From NCBI GenBank assembly GCA_036785375.1, contig JAWMAR010000105.1:1798001-1862000 (forward strand): a stretch of DNA of 64,000 bases, read 5' to 3'. This document shows positions 2,550 through 62,233 of this stretch, piece after piece. The notes below the pieces were generated by a model. The model searched no databases and was not told the origin of the DNA. It was given only the letters and a program-made list of their open reading frames with translations. Numbering within the stretch: position 1 is the stretch's first letter; each line of letters starts with the position of its first letter. The DNA is from Leucoraja ocellata (taxonomy: Eukaryota). The position numbers and the translations under genes were made by a program.

Positions 2550-3211
2550 GTAGAAGGTGTTAATTGCTGGATGTATTATGTAACTTTCAGCATTTTCCTC
2601 AGTGCTAGATTGAATGCATGCTTTTTTTAAACGCCGCGAGTTTTTTTTATAATAAGCCAAGGTAGCTCGGATTATGTAACGATACAACAAAACGGTCTTG
2701 GTTCAACGGATCGTTCGCTTATTTTCGGGATATTTTCCAGGGACTGCCTGTGTTTGATCCGTAAATGCGTGCGGACCACAGTTGCTTGCGCCGCGCTGTT
2801 CCTCGGAACGAATTGATCCCGCTATTGATGTAAACAAACCTCACCTTAAAAAAAATTCCAAAGCGTTTGCAACGGTTAAAATATGACGGGTTTTTTTTTG
2901 TTATTGCGGCTATTTAATATTTCTGCCAATGTTCTTCCCCCTCTGGGCACTCTAAGGCGACGGTGCCCGTTTCTCGCCATCATCATTCGCATTATTGGCT
3001 GTTAATATTGGAGCCATATTTAATGATATTACGTGTTAGAAAGAATTTGAAAGGTTGCGCTTAGATTTGGTTTTAAAAATAGGCAGATTATAAATCTAAT
3101 GTTTTTGGATTCGTGTATTATTTTCACATACATTGGAAGCCTGCCTGGTTACGTGTGTTTAGAGAGACGCAGGTGCTGCAAACTCTTCATTTTTTTTTTC
3201 TCCCCTCACAG

Positions 3212-3434
3212 TTCGATGCTGAATTCCGAAGATTTGCTCTAAAACGTTCCAACGTTGGGGGGTTTCAGGAATTTTACCAGCTGATTCAAGCCGTCCATCA
3301 GATCCCGTACGTGGACGTATTGCTGGGATATACCGACATCCACGGGGACTTGCTGCCCATCAACAACGATGACAATTATCACAAAGCGGTCTCCTCTGCC
3401 AACCCTTTACTGCGAGTCATCATTCAGAGACGGG
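3212..3434 (+). CDS. pard6a: Par-6 coding exon 2 (PB1 domain)
   Basis: Polypyrimidine tract + CAG acceptor; [10 protein letters not shown]...VHQIP...[37 protein letters not shown]; GTAAGT donor at 3435, phase 1. Confidence 0.96.
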
Positions 3435-4422
3435 GTAAGTCGAACGCAGGAGCTCCCTTCTATTGGCGCCTGAATTATATCCCATTTAAAAATAATAACA
3501 ATCTCTAGATACATAACTGATGTCTGATGGTGCCATATGTGACTTATTGTAAACTGTGTATAAATAGTCGCGGCTCAACGTGGTGCGCCATAATCACTTG
3601 TCTTTTTAAATGTAGGAGGTATCTTAACACCGACACCTCTGTGCACTGAACGGTTTCCGCTATGCAAGGAATTCGGTTAATCTTAACTTTTCCTAAAGAA
3701 CCGGGAAAGGAGGGGGTGGGGGGTGTCGGGAGAAAAGGTCGTGGCGTTGTAAGTCACTTACAATGAGATCTATTTTTAGCAAAATATTTCTCCATTATTC
3801 ATGTCCCCTTGTTTTATCTATTTTTAGCACAAACAAGGCACATTGACTCATCGCTATTGGTGCCAGAAATGGGTGCGTTAAATAGCTATGAATTGCAGGT
3901 TGAGCAAGTAAACCTGGTCTTGGTTCGTGTATGTTAGTTATATGGGTCACATTTTATTTTTATAGTGTTTACTTTTTTTTTAAAAACCTCGTGCCATAAC
4001 AACCATTACGATTGTCCAGATACAAACAATTGCATTTTCATTCCACATGTAAATCATTAGTCTTCATAAAGCCTAAGTTTTCAAACTGAAGGGTGAGATA
4101 AAGTTAGATTGGAATCGAGGGGGATTACCTCTGATATGGAATGGAGCAAAAACCTCTTTGAAGCTTTATTGCAGAAATATTCTTGCCATTTTTGCGATAT
4201 AATCCTAATATTTTCCACTCTTCCCTTTCTATGGGTAGATGAAAATGGTCAGTCTATACATAAATCAACTTTGTCGTGGGCAGCAAACTTTGAAACAATT
4301 AAAACAACCTCCTAATCAGTTCTTTTCCTCCCACAACCCTAACTGTATTATCACTAATTGGAGAACAACACAGCTGAGGGAGTCCCAGCTGCTAATTGCT
4401 TTGCCTATGTGGTCTGCAAATG

Positions 4423-8662: not shown

Positions 8663-8858
8663 AATCACTTGAATAGACACAGAGTACTGGAGTAACTAAG
8701 CGGGTCAGGCAGCATCTCTGGAGAAAAAGGATGGGTAATTACCCTTTTGGACCGGAACTCTTCTTTAAACAGTGTGACCCGCTGAGTTACTCCAGCACTT
8801 TGTGTATATCATCGGTATAAACCAGCACCCACAGTTCTTTCCTACAGAAAATCACTTG
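8663..8858. mobile_element. Fold-back PLE-terminus element with TSD
   Basis: Antisense arm from 8674 then sense arm plus tail to ~8846; AATCACTTG repeated at 8663-8671 and 8850-8858. Confidence 0.7.
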
Positions 8859-10999: not shown

Positions 11000-12088
11000 T
11001 TAGTTTATCTTTTTGGTTACCTTGCATATTTGGTCAATTAGATTGACTTGCATGACAATTTTCACCCACGCGCACCAAAAAAAGGCGGCTGTCTTGATTT
11101 TGGGGGAGAGGAGGGAATTAATTGTAAAGTCATGGCTGATTTTGGTCCACAAAGCAAGCAAATCATTCGCTAAAGTTTAGAAGTATAAGTGGCAAGGTTG
11201 TCCTTGGTATCCATAAGTTTCTTTTACATGTTTACATTATTTTTTCTTCTGAGACCTTGATGGAGAGAGAAGGGAATGGAATGGAAAAGAAACAAGTCTA
11301 TAACAATGCTAAGCAGAACATACTGCACTTGCATAGTAAGTTGATTAGTACATGTGGAGGGACAATATTTTGCAACCGAAGCTGTTTTTAATTTATTTGG
11401 GGGCAACACCAGGTGATCAGGTTTATAATGTGCAACCTTGTATTAAATACAGCAAAAGGCAGTTTGTATCGCACACAAGCTGTTAACAACAATGCAATCT
11501 TTGTGGTTGCAGAGCCAGCACCAGGTTTCAGTACAAAGTTGACCATTGGAAACAACTAGTTAAAGTACTTAGAATTTTTTTTTTTCCACTTGTCCTATCC
11601 AATATAATTAACACAAACAGGTTAATGTTCCTTTCTATTTTAGGTATCTGAATATGCCTTCCATCAATATTTGTTTTCCTTGAGTAAGTGGATTCCCAGT
11701 CTGTATGTTTTAATATTTATTATGGTTGCTGTGTAACTCCTACAGTTGGGAGTTACCTTGCTGCTTTTCTAATGGACATAATGTCCCATTTTTTTTGTGG
11801 AAGAATTCTTGCTCTGTTGCCAGTGGTCAAACCACATTCCAACAATATACTTTTTGACTTGGTTGATAACACACTTTGATGGCGTTCATCTACTCTCCTG
11901 GAGATAATGCGAGGCTAAAATATTAGTGCAGTGATGTAGTGTTGCAATGTAGTAGGCCCTAACCTTTGGGTGAGATGTTAAAGTGCAATATGTAGATATA
12001 AGATCCCTCGGCACTGCTCTGTAGAGAAGGTCTCCCCCGTCGTCTCCCCAAATCTTGATTAACATGGGTGACCTACTTATTATTCCAA

Positions 12089-12487
12089 GGTAGATAAAAA
12101 TGCTGGACAAACTCAGCGGGTGAGGCAGCATCTATGGAGTGAAGGAAAAGGTGACGTTTTGGGTCGAGACCTTTCTTCAGACTGATGGGGGCAGGAAGAA
12201 GAAAGGAAGAGGCAGAGACAGTGGCCGCTGGGGGATCTGGAAGGGGGGGAGAAAGCAAGGACAACCTGAAATTGCAGAAGTCAATGTTCATACCACTGAG
12301 GTGTAAACTACCCAAGCAAAATTTGAGGTGCTGCTCCTCCAATTTACGTTGGGACTCACTCTGGCCATGGAGGAGGCCCAGGACAGAAAGGTCCGATTCG
12401 GAATGGTGCTGAGTTGGTCCAAGTTGAAGTGCTGAGCCACTGGGAGATCAGGTTGGTTATTGCGAACTGAGCGAAGGTGTTGGGCGA
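12089..12487 (-). mobile_element. Penelope-like element 3' portion: GIY-YIG C-terminus plus terminal repeat with hammerhead motif
   Basis: QHLRSVRNNQPDLPVAQHFN and EEQHLKFCLGSLHLSGMNIDFCNFR followed on the same strand by CTGAAGA-AAGGTCTCGACCC-AAAAC-GTC. Confidence 0.85.
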
Positions 12488-15180
12488 TTTGGGGAAAATC
12501 AAGATTTAACAAATTTTCAGACGTGCCTTGCCTGTTTTAAGATTTTGTTTCCAGTCATGGAGTTTTCATGTATTGGTTTCTAGCTAACTCAGAGTTGCAG
12601 AATCTCCTCAAGCATAAGGTTACAAGGAACTAATGGAAGCGATCTTTGAATATCCCTCCCAAAATAAATGCCTACAAGATTCTGAAAGACATTGAACAAA
12701 TCCACTTCTGGATCCCATTTTATCCCCACTAAGATCCAATGGCTATTTTGACTATCTGCTTGGTGATCATTTCCTGTTAAATATCACAATGGCAGTTTGT
12801 TTTTTGCTGTTTTAGAAATGTCGTAACTATTTAAATGTCACCGGTACATGATGTCCAGAGATCGTGAATGATAACTCTGACCCCAAGGTATGCACAGTTC
12901 TGTTTATCATGCACGTGCTTCACTTTAAAAAAATCCTCGTTTAACAGGTCTAATTCTGAATTGGCTTGCACACTGTTTCATCACTACAGGCAGGCAAACT
13001 GTTAAGGTGTATATTGATTAAGAAGATGCAAAACTTAATCTGCACTTGTTCTCTCCAATACACTTCCAGCAAAAGGCTCAGTAATTAGGTGATTTAATTC
13101 AAAACTCCTAAATTGAAAATGCAGATGTCACCTGTACAGAGCTGGGGTGAGCTACTGACCTTTTAGTGGACAGCAATTTAAATGTTTTATTAACTGTCAT
13201 GCTTAATTTTTCACTTGGTATGATAGCTTTAAATTGGATCTCCTTAGTACTTATTCTGGCCCCCTTAATAATTCTGAAATTTAATAATTCTGCCATTGGT
13301 TGTTGCATCTTTAACTGCCAGGGCTCTAAGCTCTGAAATTCTCTCTATCATGATCCACTCCTCTTATAGTATTCAATCTTTAGGTCACCTGCCACAACAT
13401 TTCCTGTTGATTCAGTGTTCACACTGTTGAGAAAGGCCTTGACGCTTTCTATATTAAGTGCACAGCATTGTACGTTGTTGGAATTGTAACCAAGCTACAC
13501 CATATGGTCATTTATTACCCACATTTCGACTAAAGTTTCTGCATTAACTATTCCCTTTTCCTGCATGTGATTCGACTTGTCTTCAGGGACTGTCCAATTG
13601 ACCAATTATTTCTGCCTGTTCTAGTCACACAGGACAAGTTTCTCATCCCTCTTTCTCCCAAGTCCTTCCAACTATGAATGCCATCCTAATTTGTACCTGT
13701 AAATGTGCCTTCATTTCCAAAAAAAACAATTATACATGTCATCCAGTTTGTAATTTAAAAAAGCACATGGCTACTGCTGGTTTGACCGATAAAGGCAGAT
13801 TATAGATTACCGAATGGAGAATTTGTGTTGAGATTTGATCTATATAGGCAATTTTAAATGTGGGCAATAGAGATGGGTGAGAGGGTCTTTTACCAAATGT
13901 AGAGGGTGTAAAATAGGATTAGGGGACAGAGTACAGTGGATGCATTGAAATTAACGGCAGCACCACTATAATGCTGCCAAAACTAAATTGAGTTGGAGGA
14001 TGAGAGGAAGGAATGACTCTCAAATTTGTATTCTGTTTAGACTTTTGCTTAAGATTGTAATTTGATGCTAAGTTTGCTTTGTGCTAACATTGACCTCTTA
14101 CTCAATTTTCATCTCTTTCTTAAAGATGTCAATGTAGGATTTTCTATTTTTAACCAGTGACTGCTCCCTGTCTTTGGAACAAAGAAAGCGTCACTTTTAA
14201 TTTGCTTGTGACATCAAGTGATTTGGAAGAATATTTTTAGGTGGGGTCTAAACCAGCGAGTCAAATTGTCATCGACTCCGACTGACTTTTGTATTGGATA
14301 TGACTGTCTTTACTGACTCATTCCTCAGGCAGTAATCTGTGTATTCTACTGAGCATTCTACTACGTCACAGTTTTTACAGTGTACCTGTTTTGTTAGCAA
14401 TGACGGAGTTACACAAGGGTGTGGTGTGCTCTTAATTGTAGTTGGCAAAGCAATGTTTGTTTCTGACTCGACATTGCACAATGCATTGTTACAGAAATAG
14501 TTTATCTAAAAGTTACTGCTGTGTACCTTGTGTTTGGTAACGGAAGTTCCAGAAATTCTTGTGTCAGGTGTGTGCGTAAGAAGGGAGGGTCATCACGTTG
14601 TGAGACTAAAAAGTATTTGGGAAGAACATTAGCTGAATCGAGGCAAATGTGTCATCTAAATATCAGTGCATACATCTTTGTAATCTACGCAACGTTTCCT
14701 GTCACTTGTCTTGCCAGTGGGCTTCATCAAGGTCACCAGAGGCCAGCAATTCCCTGAGAATTATCTCCCTCTTGCAGGTCTAGTGTCCACACCTACGGGC
14801 TGTGGTGTGGTCACGTGTTGAGCCGGACATCGCGGGCCTCTTGCCTTGCCCAATCCCATTTGTTGGAATGGGGTTGCTGACCATGAGTACCAGGGTTTAT
14901 TTCTCTTAATTACAGAAACATTCTAAGAAGGTTCAAAGGTGTCAAGGTTGCGGTCTCGGGTCACTGCTTGGGGGCATGCTCTGCTTTAATGAGATAATTC
15001 TCTGGCATGGTATTAGCTCAATTGGCCCTTTAAGTGGACATTCAGATTGGGTAGCTGGCTCGATCTTGTGTGGTCCACTCCAGTGTAAAAGGCAAAGCTT
15101 TCATTGCCTGATTAAATGGAGAGGACACAAAGCCTATTTCTGCCTAGCCATATTATTGCACCTGACCAACCTTTAGTTGC

Positions 15181-15436
15181 AGTGCTGGAGTAACATGGTG
15201 GGTCGGGCAGCATCTCTGGAGATAAAGGACTGGTGAAGTTTCTGGTTCAGACCCTTCTTCAGACTTATTATTCACCAGGTGGCTCTTGACAACCTAACTG
15301 CTAAAATCATAAGTCTGAAGAAGAGTCCCGACCCAAAACGTCACCTATTCCTTTTCTTCAGAATGCTGTCTGACTCGCTGAGCTACTCCAGCTTTTTGTC
15401 GATCTTTGGTTTAAATCAGCATCTGCAGTTCCTCTC
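15181..15436. mobile_element. Fold-back PLE-terminus element with 46-bp captured spacer
   Basis: Antisense arm 15181-15264, spacer 15265-15310, sense arm plus tail 15311-15436. Confidence 0.8.
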
Positions 15437-16394
15437 GACTCTTATGCTATGTGCCACCCGACTCTGGAATTACTGAATGAAAATCTAGATATATGCTTTC
15501 TCCTTGGATTTGAGAGATGTGTGGAGAAGCTGCCATACAATTTATTTTTAATGTTGTAGTTTTCAAACTGCAGATTCATTCTGAAGATTTCTGGTTTACT
15601 CCCAAAGTAATCCACCTACAGCTGGATGCTAGAAATTTGCTGGGCAGCTAATAACTAACCACAGGCTGGGCATTTTCAATAGCATTTGGTGTTTGGATAA
15701 TGCAAAGTAATTTGATCCATCCATCAAAATATTTTTTTTTGCAGGGTGAATGATATTGGAAGCCATTATCACCATTTCCTACAGGTTTGGATGTTTTGAA
15801 TGCTCTCAGGGGCTCAGTTATTAGACTAAAGTGCAAGCATTAGACTAGACTAATTTAATAATCCAGACTCTGTGCAAAGCATGACTTTAGCAGCGAGGTT
15901 GTCAAGAGTCACCAAATGAATAATAAGAGCTCTGGGCCCAGACAAGCAAAGTTGTATATTTCAGTCAGGCCATCAGTACTTGAAGTCTTGTGGGGTGGTA
16001 TTCAGATTTGAATGTACATAACCATAATGCAGCCCCTCATGGGTTTGGTACTGATGTAATCCTAGCACTTTGCTGTAGACAAATGTTTAAAGCTTGACTG
16101 GAGTTGGCGAGGAATTAAAAACCAAATACATAAATCAAAGATGACGTTGGCAAGGCGGACGGATGGTGGTCAGAATGGGTTTTGAAGAGGATTTGGGGCT
16201 TGGGGAGAACTTCAAGGTTTTGAAGGTGAAGCTGGCTGTTGTGGGGGAAAAGGTAGCTAGTCGTGGGTAGAGTGGTTAAGTTACTGTGCTGGCAGCTGGA
16301 ATCTGGACCTCCCTCCAGAGACACTGGATTGATTTTCAAGATGGATGGTGCAGAATGTTTAAATAATTCAAAAATCTTTAACTAACTATGAATA

Positions 16395-38028: not shown

Positions 38029-38220
38029 GGCACAAAGTGCTTGAGTAACTCAGCGGGACAGGCAGCATTCTGGAGAACATGGATAGGTGACACGGGGTCC
38101 TTCTTCAAACCCAAAATGTCACCTATCCATGTTCTCCAGAGATGCTGCCCGACCTGTTAAGTTACTCGGGCACTTTGTGTACATTGTCTATTAACCAGCA
38201 TCTGTCGTTCTTTGTTTCTA
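38029..38220. mobile_element. Fold-back PLE-terminus element
   Basis: ~65-bp inverted arms (...CTGGAGAACATGGATAGGTGACA / TGTCACCTATCCATGTTCTCCAG...) around a hammerhead remnant. Confidence 0.8.
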
Positions 38221-44116: not shown

Positions 44117-44183
44117 ACATTAGAAACCACCAGGTAAACAAACCAGCATCTACAGTTCTTTCCTACACATTAGAAACCACCAG
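44117..44183 (+). mobile_element. Minimal 33-bp PLE tail insertion with 17-bp TSD
   Basis: ACATTAGAAACCACCAG at 44117-44133 and 44167-44183 flanks AAACCAGCATCTACAGTTCTTTCCTAC. Confidence 0.8.
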
Positions 44184-44339
44184 TTGGACAGAGCAAAGTG
44201 CAAACTTCCATCTTTCTGGATTCTAAATGAAACAATTTTGACAAAATCCTTCAGGAAAATACTTCCTGGCTGCCCTCAGATTTTCATCTACCTTAGAACT
44301 CCGCAGTTGTGGAAACCAAGAGATGTCAAGTCAAAAAGC

Positions 44340-48351: not shown

Positions 48352-48573
48352 TGATAGTTAAAAAAACTATCAATGGAATAACTCAATGGGTCTGGCAGTA
48401 TCTCTGGAGAACGTGGATAGGTCACTTTTTGGGTTTGACTGAAGGGTCCCAACCTGAAACATCACCTATCCATGTCCACTAGAAATGCTGTGTGACCCAA
48501 TAAATTACTCCAGCACTTTTTTAATCTCTTTTTGGAAACCATCATCTGCTATTCCTGTCTCGTGATAGTTAAA
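48352..48573. mobile_element. Fold-back PLE-terminus element with 11-bp TSD
   Basis: TGATAGTTAAA at 48352-48362 and 48563-48573; inverted arms around CTGAAGGGTCCCAACCTGAAACATC. Confidence 0.75.
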
Positions 48574-52002: not shown

Positions 52003-53460
52003 TCTGTGTGGATACTTTCACCCCTTTTATTTAAGGGACTAACTGCTGCTGGAGTACTGCAATAATTTGTGATATTCAACATGGAACAATATCAAATTTG
52101 GGTAATGAGTCGGTACCAACTATAAACCATCCATCCATTCCAAACCCTTGCCTGTTCAGCCCCATTTCTATCCACTTCTCCTGCCCTCATGCTTGATGTG
52201 GTGGAATATAGTGGTAACTCCAAACACCAACTCCCAGACCATACAAGGTCGTGGTGGACGGTGTGTTGGATCTGAGGATCTTTTACCATCCTAAATACCA
52301 GAGGATGGGGCTTGTTTGACTGCAGTCGCTATGGGGTGACTGGAAGATGCACTGCTGCCCGAACAGAGGGATAACACCACAGCTTGATAACGGGGCCCAA
52401 TCAGTTAGGATCAATTCGGGATGGGCAATTGGAGTACCATGCAAGATTTGTGCCAATGTAAAATAGAGATTCCAGTTATATAGATGTTTTCATCATGGTG
52501 CAAATAAGGGAGGAGCTGAAAGTGAGGGATAAAGCCTGATGGGTATTTTTGTGCTTGAATGGGATTTGAATTTTCTAACCTGAGCAAATTGAGTCTCAAC
52601 TGACCAAGAAATGAAAAATTATTGAAATGATACATTTTTATGCAGCATTAAATTTTCAATGCTGAATAGAAAGTGTTTAATTTTGCACATGTATATTCCA
52701 GATTAATGACAACACACTTCCACTCAAGGGTCTCAATTTTCAACCACTCTGTTGGTAATTTTGTAATCCAAGAAAATTGTTTTCTCTTCCAATGATGGGA
52801 GGAAAGAAAAATGAGCGTATTGTGGTTGCCTTTAACTAGATGTTTTAATATGAAATACATGGAACCTGTTGTTTTTCCTGTCCTGCAGTGTAGTCAGTCA
52901 GAAGGGCCATGATGTGATGACTGAATAAAAGCTGCTCTAAAGAGATTCATTGCGATTTAAATCGTCTCTTGCAGTGCTGTCAATAAATAATATCCTATTA
53001 TGTCATCAATGAACTGCAGCATGGGAAGAGGTCACTTTGTGCATTTCAAGTACTAAATCTGATGTAACATGAATTTTAATTTTTTACTATGATGTTGAAA
53101 AGCTACTTTATGAAATGTTACTAATCGCATCTGAGAGTAATGTTAGATCTAAATGCATGCTTCAGTCAGCTGAGCAGTTCAAATTCTGGAATTTACAGCA
53201 GCAGTAGACAGTTTAATGATATGAACAGAAATCAAATGACATTTATCTTCCCCTCAAATTGTCAGCTATTGCTTTAGCAAATCAGACCATAAAATAATTC
53301 AGCCATGTTCTTTAGTGGTCTGGCAGAGTATTAGTTGCAACAATTATCTGACACTCAAATTAACAACGTTATCAACAACTTCAACCATTTCAAGAATTTT
53401 TAGCCGAAGGATCTGAAACATAATGGGTGGTTTTGCACCGGGATAGACTGGCTGTCGGGC

Positions 53461-53669
53461 ACCAGTTGAAGTGTACACAAAAAAGCTGGAGAAACTCAGC
53501 GGGTGCAGCAGCATCTATGGAGCGAAGGAAATAGGCAATGTTTCGGCCCGAAACGTTGCCTATTTCCTTCGCTCCATAGATGCTGCTGCACCCGCTGAGT
53601 TTCTCCAGCTTTTTTGTGTACCTTCGATTTTCCAGCATCTGCAGTTCCTTCTTAACCAGTTGAAGTGTA
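53461..53669. mobile_element. Young fold-back PLE-terminus element (149-bp palindrome, 15-bp TSD)
   Basis: Arms 53473-53546 / 53548-53621 with one mismatch; perfect TSD ACCAGTTGAAGTGTA at 53461-53475 and 53655-53669. Confidence 0.92.
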
Positions 53670-54454
53670 ATTGATTGTGAGATGAGGTACTGAAGAGGGA
53701 AGGAGCAGTGACTGTAGTGATCCCAAACGCAGTATATTTCTTAAATACCTCAATCTGATTTTAATGTGCAATCTAAATTTTGCTTGCTTGCATTAGAGAG
53801 CTCTTCCTCTAATTAAAGTAGTACTATGGCTGTGTGTATTTGGGGGTAGTTGGAAGAGGGGTGAGAAGAGAATGTAACTGGACCTAAAACTTGGGCATTT
53901 ATGTGTCCTTTATACAAATGTTTTCCATGAAGATGTGACCATCCCTAGGTATTTTCCAGTGTATTTTGGATGGTAGTGTATCCTGCAATATTGTATTCAT
54001 TTTATTGAGAACAAATATTTCTGACTCTCCTGGAATCTAAATTGAACATAAAAGAAAGATTTGGAAGATGAATCTGTCTTTTGCTCCCTCGGTATTACAA
54101 TTCTCTATGGGTTTTACCAAGATAAGTGATTCTCTCCTTTTGATCATTCAATATATCTAAACTCGACAAAATGAACTTAATGCAATGCCAAATTTAAACT
54201 TCACGCTAAGCTAATACTTTAAGTTCTTAATATAAACCCAACAAACAACCCTACTACAACCAAATCTCTGCCACATTCTGGCTAGGTTTTAAGGAGAGTT
54301 CTAACACCAGCTAAATCTGGTGGAAATATTTATTCTCTCCGATTAGGACGTGAGATAAGTGCTGAATGCTTTTGATTTGATTTGATTTCCTTTTTAAATG
54401 AAAAGCTCAAATGTTACTTCAGAAATCTAACCAAACATTTGCATCTTTCTGCAG

Positions 54455-55302
54455 CTGAAGGTGACTGCGGGGCGTTTGGAACCAATTCTCTCCTACGCAA
54501 GAAGAAAGGTCTCCATGTGCTGCGGCCTGTCTATCACAAGTCAAAGCCTCACATCTTGATTGGAATGCCGCAGGATTTCCGACAGATCTCTTCCATTATT
54601 GACGTGGACATCCTTCCAGAAACTCACCGCAGGGTCCGTCTTCACAAACACGGCTCTGACAAACCACTTGGATTCTACATTCGCGACGGGGTGAGTGTAC
54701 GGGTGGCCCCTCAAGGAGTGGAAAAGGTTCCAGGTATCTTCATCTCCAGGCTTGTCCGAGGTGGCTTGGCGGAGAGCACTGGCCTGCTTGCGGTGAACGA
54801 TGAAATACTCGAGGTCAACGGGATTGACGTCGCCGAGAAGTCACTGGACCAAGTGACCGACATGATGGTAGCGAACAGTCATAATCTGATCATTACCGTG
54901 AAGCCAGCAAATCAACGCAATAATGTCATTCGCAGCAGCAGGGCCTCTGGCAGTTCTGGTGTTTCCACGGACAGCAGTCCAAGCCAGCACAATGTCATAG
55001 CTACTTCACACTATGCCAACCACTACAGTGCAGCTGAAGGAGAGAGTGAAGACGAAGGCGATCTAATAATTGAAAACGACATGCCATCATACATTCCAAA
55101 AACAATGTTCCCAAACTATGTGAATGGAGATCTTACAAAAAAGCTGCAGCATAACCTCTCCCTAAACAGCCCACTGTTAGACAGCAAAGAAAACAAATAT
55201 AAAGGGTCCTTAAACTCTTTGAACATACATAGTGACAGTCCCAGCAAAATAAGTTCAGGCCATGGAAACATGCGAGAAGATGGAACAATGATAACACTAT
55301 AG
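54455..55302 (+). CDS. pard6a: Par-6 coding exon 3 (semi-CRIB, PDZ, C-terminal tail)
   Basis: TCTTTCTGCAG acceptor in phase 1 matching exon 2; [44 protein letters not shown]...[21 protein letters not shown]; LHKHGSD, VAPQG and LVRGG are PARD6A-type. Confidence 0.96.
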
Positions 55303-57750
55303 ACAATTTTCCTTTATAATCACTTTTATATAACATTTCCAAGTCCTTTGTGGTTAAACCTGACTTAAGCCTTGTTAAGGAGGTTGGAATCCAATCAATT
55401 TTTACAAGAATATTTGACGCCGATGGTGAATCTGGAGGTTAGAAGTATTTATGAAAGAAAAATCGTAATCGCTTTTATGAAGGATCTTTGACGAAGAATT
55501 GTGCGTATTCGCATCATGTTTCATTTTCGATGGCAATTAAATGTCCAAGATTCTGTTTAGAAGCCAACCTCTCGAACTGCTTCCTGTTTAATAAAACTGG
55601 AATGCATCATATTATGGAGCAGCATTTGAGCAGATGTTACCTGCAATTGGAGACAAATGTATCTTGTGAAATTGCAATACAAGCGTTTTTAAAAATGCGG
55701 GTTCACTATCTTCATATCATGGAACCTGTGCATTTGCATCAGTGACCTCATTGTTACAAATGTAAACTTACAAACTACTTATTCAGCATTATTTGCATTT
55801 ATCCAATTTGAGAGCAGGTGTCCCCTTTTTCCTATGGAAAACAATTATGAAACTGATTAAACGTGGACAGGATCTTCAGTGGAGCATAAACCTTTCGTGA
55901 AGTAGCTGCTCTGCTCCCTAAAAGGATATTTGAGAGCTTTGCAATTTTAAACTTGTGGATTTCCTGCTGTAAGGCAGATTCTTCCTTGGTGGTATGAGGG
56001 TTTCCTGTATTGTATTTTTTTAACCTACCTGTATCTTAAATTTTAAGAAACCCTGCTGGCTTCAGTACCTTTTAAAACCATGCTGCTTGACATATTCTTT
56101 CTGTATTGCACACATTTTGTACTTTCCTCTCCTTAAACAGAGCACTGTTCGACACTGAGATAAGTAACCATCAATAATACTCCAACTACTGTGTACATTA
56201 AATGACAAAGAGCACTTTTTAAATTGGAATACTTTCAGAAAAAGATCAGTGTAGTTACGTCCAAGGATAATTTTTCTCTACAGCGTACCATAAATTAATT
56301 AATAATAAAGCTTCTGATTTTTAATCTTTCATTAAATGGATATTCTCACTGACAAACCTAGGGCACACAAGGCAACATTGTCATCTAAAGAGCTTCACAA
56401 TGTCTGTATTTGGGGTTTAAATTCTATGGAAACACTTGGGAATGAATTTGAAGACATTTCACTTTTTATCCACATAAATATCGTGACAATTTTGTTGTTG
56501 AGGTTTTGGGGTAGTCTAAACTTGACAAACATGTTGGTAATTAGAAGATAGGCACAAAGTGCTGGAGTAACTCAACGGGTCAGGCAGCATCTCTGGAGGA
56601 AAAAGGATGCATAATGTTTTGGAAATCTGCAGAAGGGTCCCAACCAGAAACGTCACCCGTCCTTTTTCTCCAGAGATGCTGCCTGATCCGTTGAGTTATT
56701 CCAGCACTTTGTGTCTATCTTTGGTATGAACCAGCATTTGCAGTTCTTTTCTACACAGGTTGGTAGTTTAGTATCGGCACGTTCATTTCCAGCAGAACTG
56801 GATGCACTTTGTTAGAGTATAATTGTGCAACTTTACTAATCATTTAAAAATAGTAGAAAATTAAGTATGAGCTCCTTGTATGGACCCTGTAGGTGATCTT
56901 GGTAACCTGGAGCCTTTAACAATTAAAATGGAGAGCACATTGTCAAGACACAGCAATTAATTTTAGTCTTGTCCACCCTGTCAGTTTCGAGGCCTAATCC
57001 ATTACTTTAAACCTAGAGTCTGATCATTGTTGACTGCTGGATTCCCAACAATAATCAAAATGTACCTCTCTGCACACTTAAAGTATTAAGCACAATGACT
57101 GCAGTTTTCATAAGCTTCCTGTAGAATGAGCAGCTTTTATTTTCCATCAAAATAAAACTGGGATTGCCAAAATCTTTAATATAACATTTCCTCTACTTAG
57201 TAGTTCTTAAGTGAGGATGAAAACCACTATGGAAATGCTTCCGGTAATTGTAAATTGTCATCATTTAAATGTTATAGGGCTATAGCAGTCAACCATAGTT
57301 GTAGGCAAAATGTGATTGATTTTTATTTTTTGGATCATTTTTTGTAATTATTTCTGCTGCACATCACTACATTTAAAGGTTTTTCTTTGTGGTAGTTCTG
57401 AGCCAGCAGGGTTCCATGGTGGGGTGTGACTTTGCTGAATTTCTTTTAGAACATGTACGTATTTTTTGATTTGTTATGCATCAAATCTGTTTAGTAAAGA
57501 GATGAGAGCAATTTTATCTAACTGGGGATATTTTGTAATTTTTTAATGAAATGAGGGCAGTATTTTTCTTACTTTTTTGTATTTGACCCCACTCAATCCT
57601 TGGTCTCTATTTGACTTCCCATAACCTATACTACCTTGTATTTATCTTATTTAACAGATGAGCAATCGTGAAGATTGAGATTGCAGAACATTGTGAATGT
57701 TCCATAGATGTACGTTGATTATTCAAATAAAAGTTCTAACATGCACCAAA
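55303..57750 (+). other. Probable pard6a 3' UTR with alternative poly(A) signals
   Basis: AATAAA at 55590, 56304, 57151 and 57726; U-rich 3'UTR-like sequence at 57300-57660; true end unknown. Confidence 0.45.
56545..56756. mobile_element. Fold-back PLE-terminus element downstream of the stop codon
   Basis: ~65-bp inverted arms 56545-56609 / 56658-56721; approximate TSD ACATGTTGGTAATT / ACAGGTTGGTAGTT. Confidence 0.85.
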
Positions 57751-59859: not shown

Positions 59860-60420
59860 GGAGTAACTCGGCTGGGTCATGGATAGGTGACGTTTTGTGT
59901 CTGGGGTAGAGGCAGGCAGAAGTACTGGATGAGGAGGGGGCAGGACAAAGCCTGGCAAGGTGGATGTAGGTGAGAGGGTTTTTATTGATGGGCAGATGGT
60001 TGGACAAAGACCAGAGATGAATAGACAAAGGATGTGAGGCAAGGATAGAAGAGATGAGAATTGTGAAGCCAGTGGTAAGAATTAAGATGGGAGGGGAGAA
60101 ATGGGTGTGAGTACAGGTGGGGGAAGGGGGGGGGGGGGGGGAGGTTTGATTAGTTTCCTGAAATTGAATAATTCAATGGGTTTTTTGGGGGGGCTGTAAG
60201 CTTCCCAGCTTACAACAAAGTTCTGATCCTTCAGTCTGCATGTGGTCTCACTCTGGCAACGTAAGAGGTCAGGGACAGAGGGGTCAATATGGAAATGAGG
60301 GGACAATTACAATGGTTAGCCTGCGGGAGATCCAGAAGGTGGACCGAGCACAAGTGTTCGGTGAAACAGTTGCTGAGTCTACTCTTTGTCTCGTCGATAT
60401 AAAGGAGGTCACATCGAGAT
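59860..60420 (-). mobile_element. Penelope-like element 3' part (inverted copy)
   Basis: Minus strand encodes LLYIDETKSRL (YIG half-motif) and the C-terminal IELFNFR block, then UTR and terminus. Confidence 0.75.
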
Positions 60421-60429
60421 CAGTCAGAC

Positions 60430-61522
60430 ACCTCCTTATACTTACCCCTTGAGCCCACAGAGGGGTATGTGACATCCAGCACATTCTGGCATTTCTGCCA
60501 TCGCCATGTGATCCCACCACCAGTCATATCTTCCCATATCCACCACTTTCTGCCTTCCAGAGACTGCTTCTACAACTCCTATGTCGACTAATCCCAACCA
60601 ATCCTTCCCGAGGTTTTTTCCCAGGAGATATAAGACCTGTACCTATACCTCCATCCTTGCAGCTATCCAGGGACCTCAACAGTCCTTCCAGGTGAGACAA
60701 AGGTTCATGTGCACCTCTCAGCTCATCTACTATGTACAGTGTTGCTGGTGTCTCCTTTACATCAGTGAGACTTGGACATCTTTTAGCCAAGCACTCTTAC
60801 TCGGTCTGCTGGACATCCCAGTTGCTAGCCATTTTAATTCCTTTCCCATTCTCATAATGGCCTTTCTATCTTGGGCCACATGCAAATTGGAGGAACAACA
60901 CCTCATATTACACGAGGGCAGTGACAACCCAATGATATGAACATTGAATTCTCCAATTTTTGGTAACTTACCAAAACCCCTTCCACCTACATTCCTTCCT
61001 CTGGCTTCACAATTTGAAATTCTTCTATCCATATCTCACACCATTTTGTCTTTCATCTGGGAGCTTTATCCAAACATCTGCCTTTTAACCCCTCCCCAAC
61101 CCCCCTCATCTGCATCCATCTATCACTTCCCAGGATAGACAAAAAAAAAATGCTGGAGTAACTCAGTGGGACAGGCAGCATCTCTGGAGAGAAAGAATGG
61201 GTGACGGTTCGGGTTGAGACCCCTCTTCAGACTGATCAGAAGGGTCTCGACCCGATGTCACCCATTCTCTCCAGAAATTCTACCTGTCCTGAGTTACTCC
61301 AGCATTTTGTGTCTATCTTCGATTTAAACCAGCATCTGCAGTTCCTTCCCACACATACTATCACTTACCAGGCATAGTCCTGCCCCTCCTCTCTTCTAGC
61401 TTTCTGCCCACCCACCCAAATGCAATCCATCTGATTAAGGGACACAACACAAAATTCCACCTATCCGTGTTCTTCAGCAATGCTGCCAGATCCACTGAGT
61501 TACTCCAGCAATTTATCTTTTC
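60430..61522 (+). mobile_element. Penelope-like element 3' part with decayed GIY-YIG endonuclease
   Basis: FQVRQRFMCTSQLIYYVQCCWCLLYISET...PVASHFN...CKLEEQHLI, then UTR and a degenerate terminus at ~61430-61520. Confidence 0.85.
61120..61372. mobile_element. Fold-back PLE-terminus element nested in a Penelope UTR, 15-bp TSD
   Basis: CTATCACTTMCCAGG at 61120-61134 and 61358-61372; inverted arms centred at ~61235. Confidence 0.85.
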
Positions 61523-62233
61523 CTATATGTGGCGAATGATCTTTGGACATGCATTGCCTGGGAACAAGTTTACTATGTGTAAAGTGCCAGGGAATATTCA
61601 TAAAAAGCAGAAGCACAATGAATGTTTAAGACTGCAAATTATCTCTTTATAGTAACTGTATAACCATCTGGCCACTATCTCATTTCTGATGTCCTTATTG
61701 TGTCAATGTCCTTTGTTATCTCTTCCCCCACTTGTCATCAGTTGTCATCTGCTTTTCTCTGTGGAGCTAATTTAATTTTTGTTTAATGCCCAAAGCATTA
61801 ACATAATTAAAAGTCTTGCATCTAAATATAGGGAGAGTGTTGATCAGTGCGTGCAGTAGAAATGGTGCACGTGAAGCAGATTTGAAGTGTAATGTGCTGC
61901 TGCCCTCGGTTACAAAATACTCACCTGCTTACACGTGACAAAAATCAGGTATTTCAGTTGACATGAAAATTGGTACTTTCTGATGACGTCAGCTAAAATC
62001 AGTCTGGTTGAAAACTTACCCCATTTTGTGTGAGTGCACATCAGAATATTTTTCTTTTCCTTTATTTTGGAGTTGTACATGGAGGTCTTTCACTCGTTTG
62101 ATGTCTCCTTAAATGATGGGAAGATGCAAACATACATTTGAGAGGCAATCCTGTCAAATAAACACGAGATATCACACATTTACCTTTGGTGGTTCCCATT
62201 ATCTGCTCTTGGAGTCATAGATTTTTTTTTAAG

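Follow-up and report, generated by a model that had tools for sequence, protein, structure and literature searches.

The fold-back element at 15181-15439 of this Leucoraja ocellata sequence raises the question of how a piece of neighbouring DNA, in inverted orientation, came to lie at its centre. The initial annotation attributed this spacer to a polymerase that had switched template onto local host DNA or RNA during integration, and suggested that such elements can record flanking sequence. We analysed the window, i.e., the whole stretch of 64,000 nucleotides, together with contigs of related organisms and published precedents. The spacer appears to be genuine and old, an insert copied from a local template at the centre of a known structure of Penelope-like elements (PLEs).

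Results

The fold-back and its family

The arms are 5'-truncated pseudo-LTR (pLTR) fragments of a very abundant PLE (Table 1). BLAST detected 29 fragments of this family in the window, with seven short head-to-head pairs and an eighth, long-armed pair at approximately 59870-61530. The two arms, 15181-15268 and 15308-15439, form one long hairpin in the predicted fold (z -8.6). An extra 3' tail of the family is present on the right arm (approximately 15395-15439), and such a tail is confined to one arm in all seven short pairs (six by pattern, that at 53530 by eye). Target duplications of 11-15 bp, with at most one mismatch, bracket the whole pair in five of the seven; because the duplications surround the whole pair and the tail is one-sided, the pairs can be considered single events. 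No recognisable target duplication was found for the 15181-15439 element, and none ties 15180 to 15440. In the other pairs of the window, the arms are separated by little or no sequence, and one arm is often incomplete at the centre.

Table 1. Features of the locus, with positions in the window and strand
Feature	Positions	Strand	Description
Left (short) arm	15181..15268	-	5'-truncated PLE pLTR fragment from the minimal hammerhead (CTGAAGA 15262-15256); no tail
Right (long) arm	15308..15439	+	pLTR fragment that begins at the element position at which the left arm begins; CTGAAGA 15315-15321
Spacer	15264..15310	+	inverted copy (47 nt) of 15881-15927, sharing 2-5 nt with the left arm and at most 3 nt with the right arm
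Donor	15881..15927	+	unique DNA of the intron, 442 nt beyond the right end of the element; runs X8 and X14 have lost 2 nt at 15905
Short fold-backs	8673-8846, 15181-15439, 38031-38220, 48374-48560, 53460-53660, 56531-56760, 61135-61355		
Longer family copy (context)	12060..12491	-	immediately upstream of the hammerhead module, the C-terminus of a GIY-YIG endonuclease in decayed form (12491-12268)
PARD6 exon, PB1 domain	3083..3508	+	in open frame
PARD6 last exon, PDZ domain	54376..55302	+	in open frame

Because no reverse transcriptase (RT) was found in the 64-kb window, which also contains no full-length element, the assignment to PLEs is based on the remnant of the endonuclease and on the layout. 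In the longer copies a decayed GIY-YIG endonuclease C-terminus lies 5' of the hammerhead module, and an inverted 5'-truncated partner with the tail at a single end is seen in 7/7 short pairs; in the layout described for PLEs, an inverted copy with a 5' truncation is accompanied by a single terminal tail of 30-40 bp (Craig et al. 2021, PMC8557442). The fold-back layout itself is thus ordinary for PLEs. The little-skate protein P0001 matches 12491-12268 in tblastn (72-78% identity, E 2e-19), just upstream of the family copy at 12060-12200, and also matches both arms of the long pair (60560-60931 and 60416-60252). The Pfam GIY-YIG match of P0001 itself is weak (E 0.0013, below the cut-off), a Pfam search of the endonuclease fragments of the window yielded no match, and searches with the endonuclease remnant at 60.7 kb returned only unrelated repetitive proteins or weak matches. 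Little skate was the sole source of a protein relative found for a neighbouring transposon remnant. In the gene model of P0001, an N-terminal DUF4518 is followed by a GIY-YIG C-terminus of the PLE type, which reflects either exonisation or mis-annotation.

We also considered a non-LTR retrozyme and rejected this assignment: retrozymes are head-to-tail tandems in which every unit has its own complete hammerhead (bioRxiv 10.64898/2026.07.22.740005), whereas the copies found here are single or head-to-head. A gapped-pattern scan of metagenome contigs yielded nine loci, none of them like the skate family, and a 24-nt stretch of the arm had no match in viral or prokaryote contigs. Among the nine loci, the sole long match of a spacer elsewhere in its own locus is a direct repeat, in the GC-rich L009. 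Unrelated fold-back palindromes were seen at L002:2870-3220, L004:2870-3220, L007:2660-3010 and L008:1330-1680. L002 and L004 are the same around the match and both contain a hammerhead-like CTGATGA...GAAAC; these two palindromes are perhaps host PLE fragments.

Several other observations concern the family within the window. In 7/7 short fold-backs it is the right (+ strand) arm that carries the tail, i.e., the tail is on the sense strand of PARD6, an arrangement expected in approximately 1.6% of cases under random orientation (two-sided); this skew may stem from an insertion bias linked to transcription, or from selection. The long-armed inverted pair carries endonuclease remnants on both arms and is interrupted by a younger short fold-back, 61135-61355, which has a 15-bp target duplication. 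The youngest pair is 53460-53660, in which 9 of 105 aligned columns differ, the 15-bp duplication is exact and the centre is truncated inside the hammerhead. A tail-only insertion of approximately 30 nt is located at 44117-44185, within a 17-19 bp duplication.

The element and the donor lie between two open PARD6 frames, and we infer that both belong to one intron of approximately 51 kb. Exon-like stretches were noted by eye near 15575 and 15745, and the segment 10657-11000 is MITE-like, with 49-bp terminal inverted repeats of 96% identity.

The spacer is an inverted copy of nearby unique DNA

A BLAST search against the window identified 15265-15310 as the reverse complement of 15881-15926 (39/46, ungapped, E 1.3e-9), which confirms the gapless match that had been reported 570 bp downstream; the runner-up ungapped site in the window has 25/46. 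Identity is 40/47 once 15264/15927 is added, and 570 nt separate the two copies. As a control, we used 607 sampled 46-mers from outside the element family, for which the best partner within 5 kb averages 25.2 (sd 1.9). Only two of these 46-mers score 39 or higher, both of them from a single dispersed repeat that occurs at least four times in the window, and the highest score of 300 shuffled spacers was 29. There is no third copy of the 47-mer across the 64-kb window, it is absent upstream of all the other family fragments, and the 100-nt flanks of all 29 fragments contain no second local unique match. The initial annotation had allowed that the spacer might be a common repeat or a part of the element consensus; the window search and the contig depth in relatives speak against the former, and the 29 family fragments against the latter. 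The spacer was also said to sit exactly between two CTGAAGA starts, and this is nearly so: it does lie between the motifs, but 2 nt separate it from the left one (TCTTCAG, 15256-15262) and 4 nt from the right one (15315-15321). The most plausible reading of the spacer is a templated insertion, for which local DNA approximately 440 bp from the target site would have been copied backwards, with microhomologies of 2-5 nt.

Junctions

The ends of the spacer coincide with the 5' ends of both arms. In the present sequence, the donor match shares CTTAT (5 nt) with the left arm and CAT (3 nt) with the right arm. However, TCA precedes GTCTGA in six other copies in the window (in three of them as CATCA), whereas both arms of the 15181-15439 element read ATAA; if the source RNA read TCAG, not TAAG, before TCTGAAG, the overlaps fall to 2 nt on the left and 0-3 nt on the right. 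Because six other copies read TCA at this site, only these shorter overlaps are certain.

Hammerhead motifs and RNA folding

The family pattern fits the minimal type I PLE hammerhead, with CUGAnGA and GAAA boxes, an extra base before helix II, G10.1-C11.1 and palindromic 15.2-16.2, according to the criteria of PMC4209133. In the right arm, the GAAA box has changed to AAAA (15335-15338); the left arm retains the core boxes but no longer has the G10.1-C11.1 pair or the 15.2-16.2 palindrome, and neither arm preserves the complete minimal motif. An Rfam scan of the window produced 0 matches at the gathering score. The two hammerhead copies are on opposite strands, and the + strand copy is buried in the predicted arm hairpin. 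Hammerhead activity at 15181-15439 is unlikely, and the description of the locus as a ribozyme element overstates what is left of two copies that have both lost conserved positions.

The proposal that the spacer creates a competing long-range RNA stem finds no support in the folding model. In the + strand RNA 15150-15960, the expected number of pairs is 68 for arm-arm versus approximately 1e-6 for spacer-donor. The respective duplex energies are -106 and -59 kcal/mol, and imposing the spacer-donor stem costs 10.8 kcal/mol relative to the arm hairpin, in a fold without pseudoknots. A short loop contact between spacer and donor RNA would remain compatible with the model.

Copy number and age in relatives

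Contigs from four of 24 listed runs, representing four other organisms (X3, X19, X8 and X14), were aligned to 14870-16189 at 80% likeness. Depth in such an alignment is not equal to copy number, and its sensitivity to matches of 47 bp and 85% is uncertain. Between 34,173 and 39,956 contigs aligned per run, with nearly all the depth on the arms; short repeats elsewhere in the stretch raised the contig depth as well. The depth of the donor bin is at the level of the flanks (single-copy) in 4/4 relatives, and at the centre of the spacer (15283) it equals one contig in X3, X19 and X8 and zero in X14, where a gap in coverage is no evidence of absence. Contigs span arm, spacer and arm in X3, X19 and X8, and in X14 the flanking contigs both enter the arms. 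X8 has 69 differences over approximately 1,140 bases, and X14 has 77. All four relatives carry arm sequence and the donor, and there is no empty site among the four. Because the spacer and the arms (three runs) or the arms (X14) were already there, the element predates splits of up to 6-7%.

The X8 contig with the spacer is gapless although the X8 donor has the 2-nt deletion; spacer and donor have evolved separately, and nothing points to ongoing conversion. Divergence is 17/81 (21%) between the arms and 7/47 (15%) between spacer and donor (Fisher p 0.48). These values are compatible with a single event that produced both arms and spacer, but the intervals are wide (13-31% versus 6-28%) and a later event fits too.

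Discussion

Precedents

Head-to-head pLTR fragments with a tail on one arm and a minimal hammerhead motif are shared with PLE pairs (PMC8557442; Frangieh et al. 2024, PMC11167929; PMC4209133), as is the GIY-YIG remnant upstream in the longer skate copies, and hammerhead pairs on opposite strands are known (Cervera and de la Pena 2014, PMC4209133). The difference is the 47-nt host-derived insert at the centre, of which the consulted parts of these sources make no mention. Templated genomic inserts have been described for L1, with 22 instances among approximately 3,600 tumour insertions in a study that did not specifically seek them; they are typically shorter than 250 bp and templated within 15 bp (bioRxiv 10.1101/2024.08.27.596794). 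Such inserts also occur in L1-induced clones (PMC11702581). The skate insert resembles them in that genomic DNA foreign to the element was copied into a retrotransposon, in the skate probably during integration, and a local segment was duplicated; it differs in the distance of the template (approximately 440 bp, compared to typically 15 bp or less), in being germline rather than somatic, and in its position at a PLE inversion joint. In snap-back 5' junctions of R2, the 3' end of the cDNA primes DNA-templated synthesis, sometimes on nearby target DNA (PMC11371274). Here too, extra DNA-templated synthesis would precede the junction, although the R2 cases are engineered rDNA insertions with one cDNA, whereas in the skate two cDNAs meet head to head.

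The nearby template and the inverted copy are also those of MMBIR templated insertions and of inverse-repeat templated insertions (TINS) by Pol-theta (PMC8421209; PMC7165422). With the overlaps of 5 and 3 nt in the present sequence, the flanking microhomology would agree as well, with a joining overlap longer than the priming overlap, whereas the commonest family reading leaves 2 and 0-3 nt. Unlike these insertions, where templates were sought or seen within approximately 100 bp and Pol-theta tracts rarely exceed 10 bp, 47 bp were copied from approximately 440 bp away. The inverted copy of nearby unique DNA is thus as expected of a templated insertion, while the template, 442 nt from the right end, is outside the range of approximately 100 bp, which in PMC8421209 is the limit of the search and not a biological bound. 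The literature that we searched, for the most part without subscription papers, yielded no report of a PLE templated insertion, and no papers linking shark or skate hammerheads to PLEs. The insert is therefore of a known kind, familiar from L1, R2 and Pol-theta/MMBIR repair, and what is new is an instance at the centre of a PLE fold-back.

Origin of the spacer

The reading that we prefer, to which we assign a probability of approximately 60%, is integration of a PLE inverted pair in which the right cDNA snapped back on the host strand before joining the left cDNA. The PLE enzyme would cut the target and use pLTR RNA as template to extend both DNA ends; its two start sites would leave a tail on one arm and none on the other, and both cDNAs would halt just 5' of the hammerhead. 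The end of the right-arm cDNA (...ATG) would then anneal to the same host strand approximately 440 nt away; a DNA-templated polymerase, either a host repair enzyme or the RT, would add 47 nt and detach, and the new end (...ATAAG) would join the left-arm cDNA. Cleavage and extension of both strands are known from a purified PLE protein, which starts at two sites that bound the tail (PMC11167929). An inverted local insert flanked by microhomology is a signature of MMBIR (PMC8421209), and intramolecular Pol-theta synthesis leaves the same signature, with a joining overlap that tends to exceed the priming overlap (PMC7165422). Copying of the spacer probably coincided with the joining of the two cDNA ends; its timing, the strand used and the enzyme are our inference. 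Several points count against this scheme: a 47-nt insert from approximately 440 nt exceeds the usual template lengths and distances of Pol-theta and L1, the element has no recognisable target duplication, and the overlaps are small on the commonest family reading.

The same scar could result if a near-perfect palindrome without a spacer integrated first and suffered a later break at its centre, as a hairpin or cruciform, whose repair added a locally templated insert. Inverted repeats are prone to breakage, the other pairs of the window have little between their arms, often with one arm partly missing at the centre, and spacer-donor divergence is nominally lower than that of the arms. However, the latter difference is not significant, the spacer is already present in three relatives that are up to approximately 6% diverged, and both arms reach the same element position without loss, which a nuclease-processed break would not be expected to leave; we consider such late repair unlikely, although it is the most serious competitor. 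Somewhat less probable still is a jump of the PLE RT from the element RNA to nascent PARD6 pre-mRNA, of which it would have copied 47 nt before joining the other cDNA. The orientation fits, as the host transcript corresponds to the + strand and the + strand of the spacer is its complement; the long distance is explained without resection, and the RTs of R2 and L1 are known to jump between templates. But a DNA snap-back on the right-hand end yields the identical orientation, so that the sequence does not discriminate between the two, the jump requires germline transcription of the PARD6 intron, and the consulted parts of the literature contain no PLE template jumping onto host RNA.

Inversion through staggered breaks leaves inverted duplicates at both ends of the inverted segment. 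The spacer could in principle be the original host DNA and 15881-15927 the derived copy, produced either when 15311-15880 was inverted in this way or when two separate insertions took place next to a duplicated 47-mer. The inverted duplicates at the segment ends match this footprint, no target duplication links 15180 and 15440, and the present order is common to all the relatives, so that its direction is not polarised by an outgroup. Yet the breakpoints or insertions would have to coincide exactly with the 5' ends of two copies while also reproducing the usual short-arm/long-arm layout of the six other pairs, which makes this history very improbable. We give the least credence to the notion that the 47-mer is a low-copy dispersed repeat or a part of a PLE variant, with an incidental match nearby. 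The search did span one window and contig pile-ups of uncertain sensitivity to matches of this size, but the 47-mer has no third copy in 64 kb, precedes no other family fragment, and has single-copy depth in relatives, even though short repeats elsewhere raised that depth.

Generality and implications

The preferred snap-back reading retains from the initial annotation the copying of the spacer from neighbouring unique DNA at the locus, but not a general habit of recording flanking sequence. A long centre foreign to the element is present in one of the eight fold-backs of the window, the 15181-15439 pair, and the centres of the other seven have only chance matches of 7-9 nt within 2 kb. In the four runs, there are 599 joints with extra letters, for which flanks are not given and some of which are not fold-backs; among the 12 joints shown, one is of 37 nt and has internal repeats. 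The insert can be considered a one-off repair scar, and neither it nor the hairpin shows any sign of a function for the host.

How PLE inverted pairs form is still an open question (PMC8557442). A single old copy proves little, and its chief use is as a lead for a genome-wide test, which is cheap to run. A host-derived insert at the centre indicates that the joint was open at the locus and was closed by microhomology-guided synthesis, in accord with two-ended priming in vitro. It is a long shot that the centres of PLE fold-backs constitute a large germline record of template jumps, left by an RT that regularly copies nascent host RNA or DNA from a distance of hundreds of bases before it joins the two cDNA ends that it holds; if this is true, the strand and distance of spacer and donor would reveal how PLE integration is completed.
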